Virus record (IMG/VR): IMGVR_UViG_637000105_000004
DNA length: 51,153 nt
Direction: 5' to 3' (one strand)
DNA from: a virus
Taxonomy: Duplodnaviria > Heunggongvirae > Uroviricota > Caudoviricetes
Positions 5,059 to 49,620 of the stretch are shown here, piece by piece. The translations under genes and the position numbers were made by a program. The notes under the pieces are model-generated. The model had not been told where the DNA came from, ran no database searches, and worked only from the letters and a program-made list of their open reading frames with translations. Numbering within the stretch: position 1 is the first letter of the stretch; each line of letters opens with the position of its first letter.

Positions 5059-6099
5059 TTATTTAGACGCAAGCGCCGCCTCAATTGCAGATAATCTTTG
5101 TCTTAATTCTGCGTTTTCTTCTTCCAGTGCTGTTATTCTGTCGTCTGACTCTCTGGCTACCTGAACAAGCAAGCCAGTAACACCAGAATAATCTACTGTG
5201 TAATAACGTTCACCTTCTTCACCTTCCGATCCGCTTGCACCGTCCTGATATTTCATTGCGGAACCTACAACTTCTGGGATTGCTTCCAGAGCTTCCTGTG
5301 CAATGACACCAGCATAGGGCATACCGTTTTCTTTAAGCGTGTATGTATAGCCGTTCATTTTACGGATGCGGTCGGTTGCATTATCGATCACCTGAATGTT
5401 GTCTTTCAGATCCCGGTCGGAATGCTGGTTAAATGCGGTGGCATGACATGCACCATTAACGCTTAACATATAGGTGTTATCGGTATTTTTTTGCGCATAG
5501 AACATATAAGCGCCACCATCAACACCGACTTCATAAACAACAGGACGGCTGGAGTTGCCCCACAATTGAGCAGTAACACCAGCATAAGCGGTTCCCTGTG
5601 TGTTTAATGTCATGGTTGACCCATGATTGGCATATTTGATCTGTAATGTGTCGGTGTAATCAAATTTAATAAGCGCGTTACTTCCACGCTTGCTGTATGA
5701 CATAAGGCAGTTACCCATTTTGAGGTATCCGCTGTCACCGGGAAAAATCATCGTACCGCCATAAAGGTTGGTAAAGTCCCAGCAAATGTTTGTCCCGTTA
5801 TCGTTCAGGTTAAGGCGCGCCATTGCGTTACCTGGACTGTCTATCCATTTTTTGAGGTATAGTTCGCAATACGCATCCTCAACACCTGCCGTCCTGTGAG
5901 TTGAGCGGAGTTTTCTCCCAAATATAGCTCCGCTAGTTGGCAATACCTGCTGATACCATGAAGCAGACCAGTCACCAACGATTTCATCTTTGCTGTCTAC
6001 ATATAATTTTGTTGCGTAGCTTCCTTGATCGTTTTTTAATTTGCTAACGTCGGATTTTAGCGTTTTGATGTCATCAGGAATTACTGTCGATGTAGCCAT
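5059..6099 (-). CDS. Tail fibre / receptor-binding protein with C-terminal intramolecular chaperone (peptidase S74-like) domain, 346 aa
   Basis: C-terminus DLKDNIQVID...YTYTLKENGMPYAGVIAQE...LLVQVARESDDRITALEEENAELRQRL is typical of self-cleaving tail-fibre chaperone domains; start overlaps upstream gene. Confidence 0.7.
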   Translation of the reverse strand: MATSTVIPDDIKTLKSDVSKLKNDQGSYATKLYVDSKDEIVGDWSASWYQQVLPTSGAIFGRKLRSTHRTAGVEDAYCELYLKKWIDSPGNAMARLNLNDNGTNICWDFTNLYGGTMIFPGDSGYLKMGNCLMSYSKRGSNALIKFDYTDTLQIKYANHGSTMTLNTQGTAYAGVTAQLWGNSSRPVVYEVGVDGGAYMFYAQKNTDNTYMLSVNGACHATAFNQHSDRDLKDNIQVIDNATDRIRKMNGYTYTLKENGMPYAGVIAQEALEAIPEVVGSAMKYQDGASGSEGEEGERYYTVDYSGVTGLLVQVARESDDRITALEEENAELRQRLSAIEAALASK

Positions 6100-6108
6100 T
6101 TGTCTCCC

Positions 6109-6390: not shown

Positions 6391-8786
6391 TTAATACTCT
6401 CCCCCATTTGCGCATCAGTTAATTCTTTATGCCAGAGACGAAGATTTCTCAAATGGCCGAATAGATGACGAGTTCCCGATGTGGCTTGACCTCCAATTCG
6501 AATAAAGGTCCGTGTTTTTACGCCCGTCCACTCCGTTTTCATGGTTTTAGTAGCCTCACCGTTAGAAACTACTCGTTTAGTACCATCAGAATAAATATTA
6601 AAACCACCAATGAATTTTCGAACATCAGTTCGACCAGCAAACACACTAGAAACGTAAGTACTTGTCGACGCTTTATAAGTTTGCATATAAAGCTGACCGT
6701 AATATTTCTCAGTTGTGTTAAAAGCGTATGTAATTGACTCAATAGGTGGCACACCAGAAAAATCAAAAATACGCGGTGCTACATTAGGAGGAATATCGCC
6801 CCAATTTCTATTAACCTCGACCAGGCACGTAAGCGGTCTATTATAGATATTATTTTCAGTTGGGATCGTCACCATATCACTGGAGCGGGTTGCGGGTACA
6901 GTTGTCGTAATAACAAAAGATGAAGCACATCCGCCGTTTTCAAATTGTGGTGTTGCAAGGTAAATATAATCTCCCGCTTCAGTTACACCACCTTTTTTCG
7001 GCGCATACTGAATCATTGCGCCAATTAAGGTTTCACCTTCAACAGCTTCTATAGTTGCCTCATAGAAAATCCACCCTGTAACCGGATCTTTAGTTGCAGT
7101 AGCTGCTATTCTATTGGCTGCTCCGCCAGTTTTTTCTATTATCAGAGTTCCGAAAGTTAAATAAGCATCTCCTAAAAATGTATAAACCGACCCATCGTAT
7201 TTTTCAAAACGCAAACGACAACGAAGACCATCAGGAGCTTTAACCCTGCATGAAACAGTGCAATACTTATTATCGCCACTAACATCAATCCCCCGGGATG
7301 CACTGCATGTATGCAGACTAAGTGCAGATGATTGTCCTGTCATATTATCTTTTGTTCGCATTTTGGCATATGAAAAACCAAATTCATCAACACCATTATT
7401 AGTTTTATCGATATTGCTGGTACTCGTCCATTCAGCGGGGATATTGGATTTAACAAAATAGTTAGTGCGCTGTCCTTCAATCAATAAACCTTCTTTTTCA
7501 AATCGTGGCTCATCAATTTTAGCAACACTAAATACGCCTGATTTATTGATATATGTGGCAGTTGATGCGCGTTTAAACTTTACAACCTTATCGCCAGGCA
7601 TCGTTATTTCATCATCACCAATAACAATCTTTTTATATGACGGCGAAAAGCCCGTAATCATATCCAGTGAATCGTTAAACGGTATCCACACATCGGGAAG
7701 CGGCTGCAAAACTTGTTTATACGGCTCCGCAGCCTGGCTTGCATACTCTCTGGCTGCGTCTTCACTTGCTTTTGCAGCCGTCTGGCTTGCTGCCGATGCT
7801 TTCGCTGAGTTAGCCGCCGCAGTCTCGCTCGCCTTTGCGTTGGTTTCACTGGTTTTTGCAGCTTTTTGACTGTTGGCTGATGCAGAGGCAGAAGAAGCCG
7901 CCGCACTTGCAGAACCAGCTGCGGCACTCTCGCTTTGGGCTGCTGCATCCTGACTGTTTTTCGCCGCAGTTTCACTGGCTTTGGCATTCGTTTCGCTGGT
8001 CTTCGCTGCCGTCTGGCTGGACTTTGCGTTAGTTTCACTCGTCTTCGCAGCTTTCTGGCTGTTAGCCGCAGCAGTTGCTGATCCAGTTGCTGAAGTCGCA
8101 GAACCGGCTGCCGCGCTCTCGCTTTGGGCTGCTGCAACCTGGCTGTTTTTTGCCGCAGTTTCACTGGCTTTGGCATTCGTTTCGCTGGTCTTCGCTGCCG
8201 TCTGGCTGGACTTTGCGTTGGTTTCGCTCGTCTTTGCGGCTGTCTCGCTATTTTTCGCGTTGGTTTCTGATTTTTTGGCTGCTGTCGCGGAGTTTTCTGA
8301 TGCAGTCTGTGAGGTCGCTGCCGCCTGTGCACTATTAGCTGCATTCGTTTCTGAGGTTTTCGCCGCGTTCTTCGATGATGCCGCTGCAGTTTCGGATTTC
8401 TTTGCCGCCGCTGCGCTCTGAGAGGCGGCTTCGGCGTTGCGTGCCGCTTCTTCCACCATTTCCTCAAAACGACGCAATGCCTCCGGCATGACATCATCTT
8501 CCGTCATGGCACCGAGAAAATCATTCAGCGTACCTGGTCTGGAACCTTCATAGACGGTAATGGTTCCGGCATGTGAAGGCGGAAAACCTTCAACAAGCAG
8601 GATAACGCTGTACTGGCCATACTCAACATCCATGCTGTAACGCCCGGCTTCATCCGGATTTTCAGAGGCCACCGTGTTCACCAGTACCGTGGTGCTGTTA
8701 CGCTTTGCCTTCAGTTGAATAGTGCAGTTCTGTATTGGTTTTCCCGCACCATCTTTCAGCACACCTGAGATTTTTACTGCTGCCAT
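6387..8786 (-). CDS. stf: Side tail fibre protein Stf (about 799 aa) with Ala/Ser/Thr-rich repeats and divergent C-terminal domain
   Basis: N-terminus MAAVKISGVLKDGAGKPIQNCTIQLKA matches lambda Stf from memory; repeated KTSETNAK units in the shaft. Confidence 0.88.
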   Translation of the reverse strand: MAAVKISGVLKDGAGKPIQNCTIQLKAKRNSTTVLVNTVASENPDEAGRYSMDVEYGQYSVILLVEGFPPSHAGTITVYEGSRPGTLNDFLGAMTEDDVMPEALRRFEEMVEEAARNAEAASQSAAAAKKSETAAASSKNAAKTSETNAANSAQAAATSQTASENSATAAKKSETNAKNSETAAKTSETNAKSSQTAAKTSETNAKASETAAKNSQVAAAQSESAAAGSATSATGSATAAANSQKAAKTSETNAKSSQTAAKTSETNAKASETAAKNSQDAAAQSESAAAGSASAAASSASASANSQKAAKTSETNAKASETAAANSAKASAASQTAAKASEDAAREYASQAAEPYKQVLQPLPDVWIPFNDSLDMITGFSPSYKKIVIGDDEITMPGDKVVKFKRASTATYINKSGVFSVAKIDEPRFEKEGLLIEGQRTNYFVKSNIPAEWTSTSNIDKTNNGVDEFGFSYAKMRTKDNMTGQSSALSLHTCSASRGIDVSGDNKYCTVSCRVKAPDGLRCRLRFEKYDGSVYTFLGDAYLTFGTLIIEKTGGAANRIAATATKDPVTGWIFYEATIEAVEGETLIGAMIQYAPKKGGVTEAGDYIYLATPQFENGGCASSFVITTTVPATRSSDMVTIPTENNIYNRPLTCLVEVNRNWGDIPPNVAPRIFDFSGVPPIESITYAFNTTEKYYGQLYMQTYKASTSTYVSSVFAGRTDVRKFIGGFNIYSDGTKRVVSNGEATKTMKTEWTGVKTRTFIRIGGQATSGTRHLFGHLRNLRLWHKELTDAQMGESIK
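7700..8420. repeat. Tandem in-frame coding repeats within stf
   Basis: Reiterated ~24-48 bp units encoding SETNAKxSQTAAKT motifs. Confidence 0.8.
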
Positions 8787-8829
8787 ATCCACTCCACAAT
8801 AAATATCCTCCGGCATAGCCGGAGGTTTT

Positions 8830-9500
8830 TCAAATGCGCCTATAAGGCTCTCTTACCAGCCGCGCCCTAACAGGCGCACACGATCTGACATTTGCATCCA
8901 ACTTCGTTACTTACGGCCCGTAAACGGGCTGCCCGGATAGGGAATCGATAACTGCTCTCCCATTTTATCCTCTTCAAGCTGGTGCTTTATGTAATCCTGT
9001 ATCTTCGCCGTGTTCTTACCCACTGTATCGACGTAGTACCCTCTGCACCAGAACTCCCTGTTCCTGTATTTGAATTTCAAATCACCAAACTGCTCGTAAA
9101 GCATCAGACTGCTTTTCCCTTTCAGATATCCCATAAACCCGGATACGCTCATTTTGGGCGGGATCTCCACAAGCATATGGATATGATCTGCACAGCATTC
9201 AGCTTCCAGAATCCGTACGCTTTTCCACTCACACAGCTTTCTCAAAATACTGCCTATTGCTCTACGCTTCTCTCTGTAGAACACCTGTCTTCGGTATTTT
9301 GGCGCAAAAACTATGTGATATTTACAGTTCCATCGGGTGTGCGCTAAGCTCTTTTCGTTCCCCATTGGGACCCCCTTTTGATTTCTTGTTTGACACTTGC
9401 AGTTGCCAGACCGCAAAGTGTTTTAACAAATCAAAAGGGGTTTTAATAACTGGCTCAAAGCTGAAAGCTTTCCGGAACCCCCAGCCTAGCTGGGGGTTTT
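8830..9500 (-). mobile_element. IS200-like insertion sequence (IS200/IS605 family); boundaries approximate
   Basis: Contains Y1 HUH transposase gene with flanking hairpins; inserted between lom and stf. Confidence 0.75.
8907..9365 (-). CDS. tnpA: IS200 transposase TnpA (152 aa)
   Basis: Translation MGNEKSLAHTRWNCKYHIVFAPKYRR...HIHMLVEIPPK... matches IS200 TnpA from memory. Confidence 0.9.
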   Translation of the reverse strand: MGNEKSLAHTRWNCKYHIVFAPKYRRQVFYREKRRAIGSILRKLCEWKSVRILEAECCADHIHMLVEIPPKMSVSGFMGYLKGKSSLMLYEQFGDLKFKYRNREFWCRGYYVDTVGKNTAKIQDYIKHQLEEDKMGEQLSIPYPGSPFTGRK

Positions 9501-9509
9501 CTGTGCACA

Positions 9510-9536
9510 AAAAAGCCCGCCTGAACCGGCGGGCTG
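9510..9536 (-). terminator. Rho-independent terminator downstream of lom
   Basis: Minus strand gcccgccggttcaggcgggc followed by ttttttgtg. Confidence 0.7.
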
Positions 9537-9561
9537 TCATAACACTGTGTTACCTGGCTAA

Positions 9562-10161
9562 TCAGAATTTATAACCGACACCCACGATGAAACCGTCAGT
9601 GCGCCAGTCACCACTGCCGGAACCTTCATAAGCAAGGTCAATGGCCACGGATTCGGTCGGGTTAAACTGCACGCCAGCCCCCCACGCCAGAGACGTGTTG
9701 CTGTGGCGACCGTCATCACTTCCGGTCAGCACATCGTGCGTTTTCCCCTTGTTGTCAGTTACGCGGAGATAATCCCCGGAGAAGGTCGACACACGGCTGT
9801 AAGCCATACCCGCCATCGCATAAGCACTGAACCATTCATTCACGCGTACAGATGGCCCCGCCATCATGCTGAACCAGCGGTTACGCACGGAATCTTCATG
9901 CCAGCGGGTATCGCTGTAATGCGTTTTTTGCTCATCTTTGGCATTGGCATAACTGAATGACGTCACCAGCCCCAGCGTGTCCGTAAATTCATAACGGTAT
10001 TTCACGTTAATGCCCTTCAGGTCATCACTGCCTGGCATATCAGTATGGGTCTGAAGATACCCGGCGCTTAGTGTGGACTGATGCTCTGCTGCGCTCGCTG
10101 GCGTACCAGCGGCAACCAGCCAGACTACTGCGGACAGAATAACAGCACATAATTTACGCAT
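9562..10161 (-). CDS. lom: Outer membrane protein Lom (Ail/Lom family, 199 aa)
   Basis: Signal peptide plus beta-barrel pattern ending GYKF; lambda Lom-like; located after J as in lambda. Confidence 0.9.
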   Translation of the reverse strand: MRKLCAVILSAVVWLVAAGTPASAAEHQSTLSAGYLQTHTDMPGSDDLKGINVKYRYEFTDTLGLVTSFSYANAKDEQKTHYSDTRWHEDSVRNRWFSMMAGPSVRVNEWFSAYAMAGMAYSRVSTFSGDYLRVTDNKGKTHDVLTGSDDGRHSNTSLAWGAGVQFNPTESVAIDLAYEGSGSGDWRTDGFIVGVGYKF

Positions 10162-30930: not shown

Positions 30931-31201
30931 AATGTTACCGTAATATGTGAGTATCCATCGACTAGACACTAAGCAAAAAAGCTCCCGAAGGAGCCTTCAT
31001 TTTCACTTTCTTAAATCTAACGACAGATGGCTAACATTTAAGTATTGTGAAATATTATCAAATGTAATCATCATTGATTTACAAAAGATACATTTTGCCC
31101 CGAAAGGATTTCTGTCAGAAACATCAAAAGATGATGTTCTATACTGAGAACCATGGCAACACGGGCATCTAAAGTGAATATGGTTTGTAATATTTTCTAC
31201 C

Positions 31202-31414
31202 TCAAAGTGCCACTACATGAACAGCTGCAGGGCCTTTAGGTCCGTTCTCAATACCAAATTCGACTTCCTGATTCTCAGTTAACGTTTTGAAATCGTTGCT
31301 CTGAATAGCTGAGAAATGCACAAACACATCTTTGCTACCATCTTTCGGCGTGATGAAACCAAAACCTTTTTCAGGGTTAAACCATTTCACTAAACCAGTC
31401 ATTTTGTTAGACAT
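31202..31414 (-). CDS. cspI: Cold shock protein, CspA family (CspI-like, 70 aa)
   Basis: [38 protein letters not shown] with RNP1/RNP2 motifs. Confidence 0.9.
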
Positions 31415-31778
31415 CATTATTACCTTTTGAAGAAGTTAGCCCTTGGGCAGAATGGTCCGAAAAAAAATATCAGAGAGAAAAACCAACAAGAAAATCTCAA
31501 GAGGTACAAATAATAAAATTATAACAATGACTGCTTCAGATAATTTTGTAACAAACCAGAACACCATTAACGCATGATTAACCAACCATAGCAAGGATTA
31601 CTTTTGTAAAGAAAAACACACGAATGAAACAATAGCTTTATTTATTAATAAAACGTGTCATTCTGTCTAATGACCTTTTATCTTACCCTTAAGATTTCAA
31701 GGATTTTGACTCATGGAAGAGTCCTTTTTATTTAAATTTCACATTCAAGCGCTAAAAATAATCCGATTTAATATTAAT

Positions 31779-34288: not shown

Positions 34289-34651
34289 TTGATTTTATTC
34301 GTAACAAGTATTTTTTATATTTTAATAACATATTTAAAGCAGATAATAAAAAACCCGCCTGAGCGGGTTTAATATTGTGGTACTTTTTGTGGGAGTCATC
34401 CACTTACGCACTTTGTTTTGCTATGCCAGCAGTTAGCTTCTGCTGTAAAACTATTCATGCAGCAAACCTGCACTTCACCACAATGGTTAGCATACTTTTC
34501 CTGATTAAGTTATTGCCAAATATGCTGGCCATTGTTTCATGTATTGGACCTCCTTACTATTTATTAAAGAGATCCAATATTCACCACTCTGTCTGTATCT
34601 CCACTCAGGCATCAGCCTTCTTCGTTATCGTATACAGACAAACTATGAATT

Positions 34652-34867
34652 TTAATCAGTAATTATGACATTTGCTGCTGCAGGACCTTTAGCACCACTC
34701 TCTACAGAGAAGGTAACCTTTTGACCTTCAAATAAGGTTCGAAAATTATCATTCTGAATCGCAGAAAAATGCACAAACACATCTTTACTACCATCAACAG
34801 GAGAAATAAAGCCAAAACCTTTATCAGCGTTAAACCATTTTACTAAACCAGTCATTTTATTTGACAT
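34652..34867 (-). CDS. cspB: Cold shock protein, CspA family (CspB-like, 71 aa)
   Basis: [42 protein letters not shown]... Confidence 0.9.
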
Positions 34868-35167
34868 TCTACATTCCTTAACTTGAGCCTTTCGGCATAA
34901 ATGGCTTGTATAACAGAAACGACTTCGTACTTAATTGGAGAGACTCAAAGAAGGAATAAGTGAATAACACCTGAAATGAGAACTGCTTTAGTAAACTACT
35001 TCGTATATCGTCTGTTCTTCAAACCGACGCAATCATTAACGCATAGTTGAACATATGAAGCAATGTTTATTTTAGACATCCAGCCATCTTCAACCCCATC
35101 AAAAAACTATAGCTTTCTTCAGGAACGTGTGTATAGTGCGCCCAGTTATCAGTATTAAGGAATTTTT

Positions 35168-45478: not shown

Positions 45479-45586
45479 AAATCAGCACGTACGAATTCAA
45501 ACTCTGCCATAAAAGAACATATAAGTAATTTATTAACATATAGATATAGGTTATATTACAAATTGAAAAATTATTGGAGAGCAACA

Positions 45587-46453
45587 ATGAATCAAAATCC
45601 ATTCTCATTCTATGACTTTCTTGGATATTTAATACCAGGTGGTTTTTTTATCCTATTAATGTATTTCTGTGGTTTGACATTCGATCTAGATATTGTTATT
45701 GACTTAAGTGAATTGCTCAGAGGTCAAAGTCAAATCTTTGGCATTTTGAACTACGCTTCAATAGTTATTATATCTTATATAGCTGGACATTTTATTTCTA
45801 TCACATCAGCATTTTTTATCGAAAAATACATGAATAAAGAATTAGGATATCCTTCCAAATATCTATTTAAAAAATTGATAGATACCTCAGAAAGCATTTG
45901 TAGCCCATCATGCGATGAGAGAAGCGCTGATAAAAAAACAAAAATAAAGAATCGCATAATCAAATGCGTATTATGTCCAATAATACTATGGGATTTTATA
46001 ACACAAAAACTATGTTATTCTCAATCTCTACCATTTCATTTAGCTAATACAACATGGTTAATGATCAAAGAAGGTTATGAGAAAAAGTTCATAACAAATC
46101 GCCAATTATTACAAGATAAAAACGGACTTGATGATGATCTCTTCAGATTGGCATATCATTATGTTTATGAGTTTTCAAAACAACATCAAACAAAAATTCA
46201 AAACTATGTTGCATTATATGGTTTTTGCAGAAACATATGTTTAATCTTTATAATTTCATTTTGGGTATCAGTTCCAACCTTTATTTATCGATTATGTACT
46301 CATAGTGATTATCTTTATAGTTTACTTTCAATAATGCTTAGCTTTTTCTTCGTCTATGTTTTCTATGTTGGTTTTGTTAAATTTTATAGAAGATATACTT
46401 TAGAAGTATTAATGGCATTTGCTGTACTTCAAAGTAACGACACTATTCGTTAA
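45587..46453 (+). CDS. AT-rich integral membrane protein (about 288 aa, 4 predicted TM helices)
   Basis: GGAGAG Shine-Dalgarno 5 nt upstream of ATG; two TM helices at each end flanking a soluble middle; very low GC. Confidence 0.7.
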   Translation: MNQNPFSFYDFLGYLIPGGFFILLMYFCGLTFDLDIVIDLSELLRGQSQIFGILNYASIVIISYIAGHFISITSAFFIEKYMNKELGYPSKYLFKKLIDTSESICSPSCDERSADKKTKIKNRIIKCVLCPIILWDFITQKLCYSQSLPFHLANTTWLMIKEGYEKKFITNRQLLQDKNGLDDDLFRLAYHYVYEFSKQHQTKIQNYVALYGFCRNICLIFIISFWVSVPTFIYRLCTHSDYLYSLLSIMLSFFFVYVFYVGFVKFYRRYTLEVLMAFAVLQSNDTIR

Positions 46454-46494: not shown

Positions 46495-46701
46495 ATGCTG
46501 AACCTCGATTGTGTTCCTATCTCAACTTATTGCAAAGAAACTGGCGAAACTCCTGAAGCAATAAACAAACGTGTACAGCGCGGTGTTTGGCGTGAAGGTG
46601 TTCAGGTTTTAAAGGTTGAAGGCGTTAAGGAGAGGTGGATTGATCTTAGTGAGGTTGCAAAATGGGCCAGACAAAACTGCTCAAACTACCGCGCGGCGTA
46701 A
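46495..46701 (+). CDS. xis: Putative excisionase (Xis-like, 68 aa)
   Basis: Small basic DNA-binding-like ORF immediately upstream of and overlapping int; GGAG Shine-Dalgarno. Confidence 0.55.
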   Translation: MLNLDCVPISTYCKETGETPEAINKRVQRGVWREGVQVLKVEGVKERWIDLSEVAKWARQNCSNYRAA

Positions 46702-47834
46702 CAATCAGGAAACACCACCAGGGAGAAACGATCAATATAACTTTCACCTACAAAGGAGTTAGATGTCGTGAGCCGCTTTCCAATCTGGAAGTAACACCAA
46801 AGAACATTAAATACGCCGAGCGTACACTCGGCGAAATCCATAATAAGATCGAAAGGGGAACATTCATTTATGCAGAATATTTTCCCCGTTCTGCTCGTTT
46901 GAAAATTTTTGGTAATGCTGCTGCAAGCAAAACGGTAAAGATGTACCTAGACGAATATCTTGAAATCTGCGAAACAAGAAAACTTTCACCCTCTACGATT
47001 GGTGGCTATAAAAAATGCCGTAGTGCGTTAGCCTCACTTCACATTTGCCCTGCAAGTGAATTAACACCAGCAACCCTGAAAGCGTGGATTCAAAGCCAGA
47101 AAACAACCTTAAAAACCATTCGCAACCAGTTATCTTTCCTACGGTCAGCACTTGATGAAGCCGTGACCGATGGGGTACTTCAAATTAACCCCGTATCGTT
47201 AGTAACAGCTTCGCGCTACCAAAGTGATAAGTCAGAAGCAGAAAGCAGCTATGTGGTTGATCCGCTATCACCAGCAGAAGTTGATGCATTACTAGCAGCA
47301 GCCGGAAACAAACAATGGGAAAATCTGTTCCGGTTCGCCATACATACAGGCCTGCGTAGTTCTGAATTATGTGCCCTACGATGGCATGATATCGACTTTG
47401 TTGGAAAAACAGCCCATGTTCAGAGCGCAAGTGTTGTCGGAGTTATCAAAGGAACAAAGACAAAAGCCGGTACCCGTAAAGTTGAACTGACTGAAGAAGC
47501 AATGTTGGCGTTGATAAACCAGAAGCCATTTACATTCATGAAGGATGCTACTGTCTTTGAAGATCCAAAGACCAATAAACCCTGGACAAGTGCTGATGCA
47601 ATCAGGAAAAAAGCATGGGTGCCAACATTGCGAAAAGCAGGTATTCGTTACAGAAATCCATATCAAACTAGGCATACATTCGCCACCCGCCATATCAGCC
47701 GGGGAGCAAACCTGTTTTGGCTTGCAGCTCAAATGGGGCATAAAGGGCCGGAAATGTTATTTCGTCATTATGGTTCATATTTAAAGGAATATGACGGTAA
47801 TACGACCAGCAATATCACAAAAAAAGCCACTTAA
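46662..47834 (+). CDS. int: Tyrosine site-specific integrase (390 aa)
   Basis: N-terminal arm-binding type motif LPRGVTIRK...TFTYKGVRCRE; C-terminal catalytic region with R...HxxR...Y (RHTFATRHISRGANLFWLAAQMGHKGPEMLFRHYGSY). Confidence 0.92.
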   Translation: MGQTKLLKLPRGVTIRKHHQGETINITFTYKGVRCREPLSNLEVTPKNIKYAERTLGEIHNKIERGTFIYAEYFPRSARLKIFGNAAASKTVKMYLDEYLEICETRKLSPSTIGGYKKCRSALASLHICPASELTPATLKAWIQSQKTTLKTIRNQLSFLRSALDEAVTDGVLQINPVSLVTASRYQSDKSEAESSYVVDPLSPAEVDALLAAAGNKQWENLFRFAIHTGLRSSELCALRWHDIDFVGKTAHVQSASVVGVIKGTKTKAGTRKVELTEEAMLALINQKPFTFMKDATVFEDPKTNKPWTSADAIRKKAWVPTLRKAGIRYRNPYQTRHTFATRHISRGANLFWLAAQMGHKGPEMLFRHYGSYLKEYDGNTTSNITKKAT

Positions 47835-47847
47835 GTGGCTTTATCAA

Positions 47848-48231
47848 TTAGGAGGCTCTCGATTTAAGCATTTCCGTACACTTAGCAAAGAGCCTCTCAG
47901 TTGTTAGAATCGCAACTTCAGACTGTTTAGAAGTGACCGATTGATCAAGTCGATAGTCTGCAACAATCCTCTGAGCTTTAAGTTGACTCAGGATAAAACT
48001 AATCCCTTTTAGATATCTAGCTTCATATACTTCACTTCCTCTTGAAGCATCACCCTGCAAATAATTGATTAGCCCCTGATGACTGTCTTTCGGCCCGTTT
48101 ACCATACAAGGCAAGACATGATGGTAAGCGCCATAGTAGGATCTTGCTATAGCATTTCGATAGCCGATTTCGTCATTACGTTGATGACAGTCTTTTGCAA
48201 AACCGAGAAAATCTTGACTATTAACCGGCAT
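47848..48231 (-). CDS. Small AT-rich cargo protein (127 aa), possible HEPN-like domain
   Basis: GGAGGG Shine-Dalgarno 7 nt upstream of ATG at 48231; motif RSYYGAYHH fits Rx4-6H; second gene of a two-gene cassette. Confidence 0.6.
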   Translation of the reverse strand: MPVNSQDFLGFAKDCHQRNDEIGYRNAIARSYYGAYHHVLPCMVNGPKDSHQGLINYLQGDASRGSEVYEARYLKGISFILSQLKAQRIVADYRLDQSVTSKQSEVAILTTERLFAKCTEMLKSRAS

Positions 48232-49036
48232 GTGCAACCCTCCGGGTAATCAGACCTAATTCGGAGATAGCATTCTGCTCAATATGAGTGTCTTTACATT
48301 CAAACCAAACAGTAAAATCTTTACCGACTAAACAATCGTGCTCAGCCATTGAAAAAGCAAGCTCAATATTCATATCAGCGATTTGTTCAGCATCAGAAGA
48401 CTTTGTCATGAATACAATCGCATTCACTTTCTCTTCCGAAATATTATAAAAACGCATTCCCGAAAGATGAACCTTCTGAGAATCCATGACATTGGCTACA
48501 TTATTGAAAATAAGTTCATATTCTAAACCAGAAAGATCGGCACGTTGCTTAAAGGATTCGACCTGGGAAACAACTTCATCAAAATTGTTGTCCATTTTTT
48601 CAGGCTCCTTATCTCCGAACAATTTAGAGTATGACTGGAAATACTTCTCCGCCAACGCCATTTTCCCCATAAAGAGGGAGTTTTCATAAGCTTGAAGATA
48701 AATAAACGGGGATACGAAGCTTTCAGCAAGCTTAATGCTTGTTTCAAAGCTTTTCTTCAACGTACCGTAATCTGACAAGAAAACAAGAAAATTCTTTGCA
48801 ACAACCTTATTATGGCATACCTGCAAGGAACGCTCAAAGAAGCCTATCGCCTCATTCACTTGACCATGTGCACCATAGACCAACGCTAAAAGATAGTCCT
48901 CAGAGACAGGATCTCTAAGTGCTTCAATCTCACGTAACATCCTTCTAAAGTTAAAGTCATCAATCCTCACTCCATCTTTGAGGTATTTAGTTAGCCCCGC
49001 GCTAATAACTGATGCTTTTTTTGCTGGCTGCAACAT
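48221..49036 (-). CDS. AT-rich cargo protein (271 aa) with TPR-like helical N-terminal region
   Basis: First gene of two-gene cassette between int and attR; 8-bp gap to downstream gene; no family recognised. Confidence 0.65.
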   Translation of the reverse strand: MLQPAKKASVISAGLTKYLKDGVRIDDFNFRRMLREIEALRDPVSEDYLLALVYGAHGQVNEAIGFFERSLQVCHNKVVAKNFLVFLSDYGTLKKSFETSIKLAESFVSPFIYLQAYENSLFMGKMALAEKYFQSYSKLFGDKEPEKMDNNFDEVVSQVESFKQRADLSGLEYELIFNNVANVMDSQKVHLSGMRFYNISEEKVNAIVFMTKSSDAEQIADMNIELAFSMAEHDCLVGKDFTVWFECKDTHIEQNAISELGLITRRVAHAG

Positions 49037-49465
49037 TAAAAACCTTATCTTACAAATAGTTGGTAATGATGTTGAATTATTTTTTGTTCTTTATGGCTAA
49101 TAAGATTACATGAAGGGACAACTTCTGGCCACCTTAGAAAACACTCACTTTAGTAACAAGAGTCAATAATATTGTTGACAAATCACAAAAAAACAAACTT
49201 ATCCAAAACAATCTGGTTTATTACAAAGCCTCTGTGCATAAATCTGTGTATAACATCATTTTTACACACATTTTTATAAAAATATTTTTTAGCAAAAAAT
49301 GCTATCTATCTCCGAAACTGCAACCACAAACCATTAATTCCAAATGAAACTATTTTAAAATAAATAGTAAGACAGTAACAGGACGGAAAAAGTTCCGCAA
49401 AAGAGCCGCGTGTAAAATCAACAATATTTGGCTATTTAAATTCAATGAATTACATAACTATGGAC

Positions 49466-49497
49466 ACGGGTTCAACTCCCGCCAGCTCCACCAATCA
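49466..49497. repeat. attR core: displaced copy of the ssrA 3' end (direct repeat of 1034-1065)
   Basis: 32-bp exact match to the ssrA 3' end, followed by ~150 bp of diverged ssrA-downstream homology. Confidence 0.75.
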
Positions 49498-49620
49498 TGA
49501 TTGGACGGTGTAAGGACTACACCAACAAAAACAGGAAGTTATAAGTCTCAGCAGGACACCGACCAGACGGTGAGGAGACAAAAAAGGATACGCAACGGAG
49601 TCGCGACTCCCTATGACATT

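Follow-up and report, generated by a model that had tools for sequence, protein, structure and literature searches.

What is encoded by the two short genes that separate the integrase from the right attachment site of an Escherichia coli prophage, and what might they do for their carrier? The window considered here, a stretch of 51,153 nucleotides (IMG/VR record IMGVR_UViG_637000105_000004), matches E. coli CFT073 (NC_004431.1, at ~3.06 Mb) with 100% identity and contains a ~48-kb prophage integrated at the ssrA gene of that strain. The two-gene cassette at its right end combines a small protein with the HEPN fold and the motifs of the AF0298 type with a larger, non-enzymatic partner of tetratricopeptide repeat (TPR) and α/β architecture. 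Their genes overlap, travel as a pair and occupy variable cargo sites in phages and prophages. Judging from these sequence features, it is on balance probable that the cassette is a toxin–antitoxin-like or abortive-infection moron, in which a HEPN RNase is held back by the TPR protein or relies on it as a sensor. HEPN modules as such are known; what sets this one apart is the partner of its HEPN effector, which is novel and non-enzymatic.

In its fold the small protein is the four-helix bundle of HEPN domains, and it is of the AF0298/UPF0332 type (HEPN-T, PF05168). Its AlphaFold2 model, computed from an alignment of homologues, is all-helical (predicted local distance difference test, pLDDT, 93.2) with helices at residues 5–17, 21–42, 71–93 and 101–126 and a short additional helix at 51–64 in an insert, and it belongs to the HEPN superfamily at the level of the fold. 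Searches recovered 50 homologues, a few of which carry the source label UPF0332 or HEPN. PF05168 is matched by 23 of 28 aligned close homologues (E ≤ 0.1, best 2e-5), and one precomputed PF05168 assignment exists. Compared with the PDB, the family profile identifies 9xbd (E = 2e-5), 9xbc (E = 1e-4) and 2hsb (E = 0.017); when the window protein or P0045 served as a single-sequence query, the PDB returned no match. The chains 9xbd_A and 9xbc_A, both entitled 'HEPN domain-containing protein' (125 and 131 aa), are the nearest solved proteins by sequence, closer than AF0298, and our literature search found no paper tied to either entry. Matches of the HEPN profile to polyubiquitin were rejected as an artefact, a 25-residue 'L.DqR..sDY' match summed across nine repeats.

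The conserved residues place the protein more precisely. Invariant in 38 homologues, down to ~28% identity, are A12, E21, R25, R30, Y32, Y33, H37, P47, H51, R88, D92 and Y93, the polar set among them being E21, R25, R30, H37, H51, R88, D92 and Y93. The earlier note on this DNA, made by a model from the letters alone, had singled out the motif RSYYGAYHH as compatible with the Rx4-6H signature of HEPN RNases. The motif is indeed present, with R30 and H37 both invariant, and the HEPN call was right as far as the fold is concerned, but R30-x6-H37, located in helix 2, is distinct from the catalytic Rx4-6H motif, which HEPN proteins carry at the end of helix 3 (PMC3710099, Anantharaman et al. 2013). 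In AF0298-type HEPN-T proteins the arginine of that motif is kept, the histidine is lost, often to aspartate, and a substitute conserved histidine lies in the insert between helices 2 and 3; upstream, helix 2 carries an acidic residue that is typically part of an Ex3[KR] motif (PMC3710099). The small protein follows this pattern closely: R88 and D92 are invariant, H51 is invariant within the insert at 43–70, and E21-I-G-Y-R25 stands at the start of helix 2. The AF0298-type assignment is based on the fold and on the agreement of R88/D92/Y93, H51 and E21-x3-R25 with the published description.

The same residues bear on whether the protein is an enzyme at all. With the Rx4-6H histidine absent, it might be a non-catalytic HEPN domain, a binder of RNA or of nucleotides that, jointly with the TPR protein, regulates or chaperones a phage or host process and leaves the cell alive. 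HEPN domains that only bind nucleic acids are admitted by the 2013 survey (PMC3710099), and the classical PF05168 domains were first read as substrate-binding subunits. We nevertheless consider this explanation unlikely. All 38 sequences share eight polar residues, two histidines and three arginines among them, without exception, which is more typical of a catalytic site; they fit the alternative active site proposed for the AF0298 type, and the patchy, mobile distribution of the pair weighs against a core regulatory role.

The partner, on which a toxin–antitoxin-like or abortive-infection arrangement would depend, is of a different nature. The AlphaFold2 model of the large protein (pLDDT 84.3) consists of TPR-like helices at ~4–147, an acidic α-α-β-β-α-β domain at ~152–247 and a disordered tail, and the tandem helix-turn-helix repeats with a TPR profile and fold that define such arrays are present. 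The earlier description of the protein as TPR-like without a catalytic signature is borne out, in that its only matches are to TPR proteins and no residue is invariant in 68 sequences. A word-indexed search found only ten close relatives. An exhaustive HMMER scan of 1.84 billion representatives yielded 139 matches, ~90 of them proteins of 245–290 aa that align end to end and the remainder generic multi-TPR proteins aligned only over ~40–85. The 68-sequence alignment contains neither an invariant nor a near-invariant column (mean column identity 24%), so the large protein is unlikely to be an enzyme. The family is uniformly acidic (median isoelectric point 4.96, range 4.47–6.05), and in the window protein the charge is located in the C-terminal half (isoelectric point 4.66, net charge ~-10). 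Searched against the PDB, a profile of the C-terminal domain alone returned only designed repeats and an insignificant match to RsfS. BFVD holds two uncharacterised full-length relatives, PADLOC gave no match, and PHROGs places the protein in a family of 'unknown function'. A minimal nucleotidyltransferase (MNT) was considered as the identity of the partner and rejected: no nucleotidyltransferase Pfam model matches any of the 68 members, invariant acidic or GS residues are absent and the predicted topology is different. We predict that the large protein is a non-enzymatic partner, be it an antitoxin, a regulator or a sensor.

The two proteins are strictly associated. A search of IMG/VR with the small protein gave 80 loci, and in all of them the large-protein family lies directly upstream. 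Where a single genome was scanned for each species, every locus with an intact small gene (11/11, including Aeromonas, Gilliamella and a Thiotrichaceae metagenome-assembled genome) has a gene of approximately 255–272 aa upstream, overlapping or abutting it. Even among distant relatives of the large protein, at ~20% identity, the next gene is again a HEPN homologue (E from 1e-22 to 1e-32 with the family hidden Markov model, HMM). Since both have many homologues, always as a pair, the open reading frames (ORFs) are not chance ones. In the same loci the large proteins are 24–57% and the small proteins 44–74% identical, i.e. the large protein diverges faster, and this faster divergence, together with the lack of any invariant column, the restriction of matches to TPR proteins and the acidity of the family, points to a partner of the binding type. 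The generic layout of type II toxin–antitoxin modules is thereby present, in that two neighbouring genes of like orientation overlap and are always inherited as a pair.

Synteny elsewhere is strict, and the pair is found in prophage cargo sites, in line with the cargo reading of the earlier note. It spans temperate phages of gamma- and betaproteobacteria, including deposited Klebsiella and Burkholderia phages, and is carried at several different moron (accessory) sites. In E. coli, and in Enterobacter prophages that are integrated elsewhere, it occupies the interval from int to the end of the prophage and runs convergent with int. Yersinia lambdoid prophages carry it between the antiterminator gene Q and methyltransferase/lysis genes; further copies reside inside a Mu-like prophage and inside tail or baseplate modules, and the Gilliamella pair lies outside any recognisable prophage. 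Among 5426 complete E. coli genomes, 44 carry the cassette, in a single copy, at full length and at least 98.9% identical. Three observations on individual loci may be added. The N6/N4 DNA methyltransferase gene of the Yersinia prophages follows the pair (positions 8681–9727 of the Yersinia loci) directly, which puts two accessory functions at one site. The sole decayed copy found is that of Proteus hauseri (positions 5136–6108 of that locus), outside a recognisable prophage, where both partners are affected: a split or frameshift interrupts the large gene, and of the HEPN gene no more than residues 7–42 are left. In Klebsiella phage ST405-OXA48phi1.3 (MK416008.1, 19076–19471) the HEPN gene is intact and encodes 131 aa (E = 3e-35, family HMM), and the two short hypothetical coding sequences (CDS) given for it appear to be an annotation error.

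Overlapping genes, a small effector and a faster-evolving partner are also what would be expected of a pure addiction or stabilisation module, in which a HEPN toxin and a labile TPR antitoxin prevent prophage loss or tune induction without any sensing of phage. The cassette adjoins int and att, where excision is decided, and it is intact in all 44 of its E. coli carriers. However, the pair also occupies sites far from int, such as that between Q and the lysis genes and those in tail modules, carrier phages in lytic growth have no need of an anti-loss device, and an array of about four TPR repeats exceeds the needs of a simple labile antitoxin. Many prophage toxin–antitoxin-like modules, moreover, act in defence, and a role confined to stabilisation seems improbable to us.

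The layout of the cassette and its surroundings comprises the following features of the window.

698–1060: tmRNA gene (ssrA)
1034–1065: attL core, 32 bp, at the 3' end of ssrA
46662–47834, plus strand: tyrosine integrase (int), with Pfam Arm-DNA-bind_2 and Phage_integrase; 'site-specific integrase' in RefSeq
47823..47842, minus strand: intrinsic-terminator-like hairpin AAAGCCACTTAAGTGGCTTT followed by a T-run, from a terminator scan and the sequence
48231→47848, minus strand: small gene, 127 aa, WP_001145022.1, 'hypothetical protein' in RefSeq
48221..48243, minus strand: gene junction (Shine-Dalgarno sequence, 7-nt spacer, ATG, 11-nt overlap), read from the sequence
49036→48221, minus strand: large gene, 271 aa, WP_000941198.1, 'hypothetical protein' in RefSeq
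49037..49466, minus strand: AT-rich non-coding stretch between attR and the large gene, 430 bp, 29.7% GC
49162–49179: near-palindrome GTCAACAATATTATTGAC (GTCAA-N8-TTGAC), ~130 bp upstream of the large gene, read from the sequence
49467–49498, plus strand: attR core, an exact 32-bp direct repeat of the attL copy and the prophage boundary
from 50176: host gene glaH/csiD, beyond attR

The location of the prophage at ssrA follows from the tmRNA gene, whose last 32 bases are repeated exactly at the attR core. The cassette fills the space between int and attR, as the earlier note had stated; int, convergent with it, is context and lies outside the module. The two co-oriented ORFs that the note had delimited are the same two CDS that RefSeq annotates, with the correction that they lie on the minus strand. 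A gap of 8 bp had been given between them, and this is wrong: the ATG of the small gene (48231–48229) lies inside the end of the large gene, whose TAA stop is at 48223–48221, resulting in an 11-nt overlap (ATGCCGGTTAA). The strong Shine-Dalgarno sequence ascribed to the small gene is present as GGAGG at 48243–48239, 7 nt 5' of the ATG; an alternative TTG start at 48237 would give a small protein of 129 aa. This junction, with its ribosome-binding site, spacer and overlap, implies that the large and small genes would be translationally coupled, and a stop/start overlap or near-abutment recurs across the 80 viral loci. The terminator-like hairpin begins 6 nt past the stop of the small gene and overlaps the 3' end of int. 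Overlap, Shine-Dalgarno sequence and a terminator directly downstream together underlie our reading of the pair as an operon.

The 430-bp stretch upstream of the large gene is presumed to be the promoter and regulatory region of the cassette, and the near-palindrome within it could be an operator or another protein-binding site, although a repeat finder at its thresholds reported no inverted repeat near the cassette, GTCAACAATATTATTGAC included. An Rfam search detected no RNA family near the cassette. The argument from composition for a separate acquisition of the cassette is only partly valid. The cassette (39.9% GC) is far more AT-rich than the late region with the structural genes (56.3%; whole prophage 49.1%), as had been claimed, whereas its neighbours have a similar or lower GC content: 43.6% in int, 28.3% in a 296-aa ORF upstream of it and 40.7% in the region at 29–36 kb.

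This layout, in turn, speaks to the idea that the pair benefits the phage during infection, in counter-defence or host takeover; the HEPN protein might, for example, cleave an RNA that serves host immunity or capture a nucleotide used in immune signalling, while the TPR protein would direct it to its target or set the moment of its action. In CFT073 and Enterobacter the pair stands at the prophage end as an autonomous unit of opposite orientation that has an upstream region and a terminator to itself, which is the usual arrangement of morons expressed in the lysogen. All carriers appear to be temperate phages, and the Gilliamella pair is outside a recognisable prophage; no known anti-defence family was matched in general library scans, which did not include a dedicated anti-defence library. 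The idea draws on the almost exclusive occurrence of the pair in phage or prophage contexts, Gilliamella and Proteus being the exceptions, and on its position in several phages within late or tail operons, where it has the orientation of the structural genes. All in all, a role in infection is decidedly unlikely. A reversal of roles, with the large TPR/α-β protein as the effector and the HEPN protein as its regulator or antitoxin, is highly improbable: before 2013 HEPN proteins were predicted to be the antitoxins of MNT–HEPN pairs and a downstream position is no proof of a toxin, but no residue is invariant in the large family, which contains neither an enzymatic nor a membrane-active domain, and the strict conservation is all in the HEPN protein.

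If the cassette is a toxin–antitoxin-like or abortive-infection module, is it one that has been described? As the earlier note had supposed, no characterised or named family in Pfam, NCBIfam, PADLOC, PHROGs (where the small protein is in phrog_5176, 'unknown function') or RefSeq includes either protein, and the pair matches no model of PADLOC-DB v2, NCBIfam or Pfam. WP_001145022 and WP_000941198 are not listed in the portions covered of the DefensePredictor supplementary tables. The two-gene HEPN system DS-28 of DefensePredictor was considered and set aside as an unrelated HEPN with an RNSVAH motif and a different partner. A literature search, which did not extend to every prophage-defence screen, found no description of the pair.

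The closest relatives by fold and motif pattern of the small protein are the AF0298-type HEPN-T proteins (UPF0332/PF05168; PDB 2hsb, 1ufb, 1wol). These normally stand beside MNT, whereas the partner here has no nucleotidyltransferase motif or nucleotidyltransferase Pfam match, no invariant residue and another predicted topology; the window protein falls below every PF05168 threshold, and the classical family is mainly archaeal or thermophilic, in contrast to the proteobacterial temperate phages that carry the present pair. A type VII MNT–HEPN system was rejected, as its defining nucleotidyltransferase of the Pol-β fold (GS, DxD) is absent beside the HEPN gene. HepT–MntA (Shewanella SO_3166/SO_3165, PDB 5yep; 7ae2; 8xdj) is different in that HepT belongs to the DUF86 clade and has a canonical Rx4H motif. 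Its antitoxin AMPylates the toxin, and since the partner in our cassette cannot be a nucleotidyltransferase, neutralisation, if any, must occur by binding.

Phage-defence systems offer further parallels. AbiV is a lactococcal abortive-infection HEPN protein with demonstrated RNase activity on rRNA (bioRxiv 10.1101/2024.05.05.592566), and the 2013 survey groups it with the AF0298 type for its alternative insert histidine (PMC3710099). It differs from the small protein in its larger size, its Gram-positive hosts and its antitoxin, which is an RNA and not a TPR protein; identity with AbiV was rejected on account of that antitoxin and the lack of a match to the PADLOC AbiV model. TPR or Sel1 partners, adjacent or fused, have been noted for LA2681-like HEPN proteins and AbiU2 (PMC3710099, Table 1), which thus share the theme of a HEPN effector beside a TPR-type repeat protein. 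However, they keep the canonical Rx4-6H motif and have Pfam models of their own, and the C-terminal α/β domain of the large protein is family-specific. Membership of these groups was rejected, none of their Pfam models being matched here. HepS, a HEPN defence protein encoded by the Salmonella Gifsy-1 prophage (PDB 9oik), binds the lambda J tail tip according to the PDB title, and is in concept the nearest parallel to a prophage-encoded HEPN protein with a phage protein as the signal it senses.

HEPN proteins are the toxins of MNT–HEPN pairs and the effectors of several abortive-infection systems (PMC3710099), and a mechanism for the cassette can be proposed along the same lines. The HEPN protein would be a metal-independent endoribonuclease, probably dimeric like other HEPN RNases, with a non-canonical AF0298-type active site made up of R88 and H51 with the help of E21/R25 and perhaps of R30/H37/Y93. 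The large protein, made in step with it through translational coupling, would bind the HEPN protein and hold it in an inactive state, possibly with its acidic C-terminal domain covering the RNA-binding face; it would thereby fill the place occupied in classical MNT–HEPN pairs by the MNT nucleotidyltransferase. Recognition is likely to fall to the surface of the fast-evolving TPR array and to concern a trigger, which may be a protein of a superinfecting phage or else the loss or degradation of the partner itself. The released RNase would then cut tRNA, rRNA or mRNA and bring growth to a stop, such that the lysogen population would be protected or the prophage stabilised. More tentatively, the cassette may represent an undescribed phage-borne immune or toxin–antitoxin class, in which an acidic TPR/α-β protein checks an AF0298-type HEPN RNase and releases it upon encounter with a protein of the invader; on sequence grounds we regard this stricter version as possible rather than probable.

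Several observations weigh against a lysogen-expressed RNase module of this kind. At the end of helix 3 the sequence reads R88-I-V-A-D92-Y93, without the histidine of the canonical Rx4-6H motif, and the RNase activity of the AF0298 type is a prediction of 2013 only (PMC3710099). That the invariant residues cluster is deduced from the helix topology and the literature, and the HEPN family is not markedly basic (median isoelectric point 6.8). The small protein of the window itself has no Pfam match at E ≤ 1, PF05168 included, and none in NCBIfam; in PADLOC it has weak matches to HEPN_IX (E = 0.0013) and an orphan methyltransferase (E = 0.0089), both sub-threshold. Library scans and the structural model detected no DNA-binding domain in the large protein, whereas type II antitoxins typically have one (HTH, RHH or AbrB) with which they autoregulate. 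A promoter scan of 49037..49466 gave no minus-strand site and a count not above that of shuffled sequence, which weakens the putative expression in the lysogen, and the location of the pair within late or tail operons of some phages also fits a phage function in lytic growth.

HEPN RNases recur as effectors of immunity and toxin–antitoxin systems, from Cas13, Csm6 and RnlA to HepT, AbiV and HepS. The UPF0332/AF0298 clade, which is without the catalytic histidine, is the oldest structurally known clade of HEPN proteins, and our literature search found no demonstrated activity or role for it (PF05168) outside MNT pairs. The cassette provides a tractable E. coli example, in the uropathogen CFT073, of an AF0298-type HEPN protein with a partner of a new family. 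Work on its function would test the alternative active site predicted in 2013 and would define a new partner or antitoxin fold; the possible gain is a new prophage-encoded defence system together with its trigger, and a function for two PHROG families of 'unknown function'. If the cassette were indeed an immune or toxin–antitoxin class of its own, it would furnish the first functional proof that a histidine-less HEPN-T protein cleaves RNA via H51/R88, and a new protein-sensing module across gamma- and betaproteobacterial temperate phages. If inert, it would be one more hypothetical prophage gene pair.

Other elements of the prophage merit mention. The 296-aa ORF at 45563–46453 (plus strand, WP_001075212.1, 28.3% GC), just upstream of a xis-like ORF and int, encodes a hydrophobic product that looks membrane-associated. 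It belongs to phrog_12528 (unknown function, E = 9e-174) and weakly matches Csx27, an accessory membrane protein of type VI-B CRISPR systems, in PADLOC (E = 1.4e-5), the corresponding NCBIfam match (E = 0.02) falling well short of the cut-off. The ORF may represent a second item of cargo, with a role perhaps in superinfection exclusion. The cspA thermoregulator RNA (RF01766) has two full-length matches on the minus strand, at 31156–31572 (107.5 bits) and 34589–35028 (156.5 bits), which imply that the prophage would carry cold-shock-protein paralogues with thermosensors in their 5' untranslated regions, in AT-rich segments. Finally, the Hfq-binding small RNA STnc490 (RF01405) has a full-length match in the prophage at 9375–9498 on the minus strand (144.6 bits).

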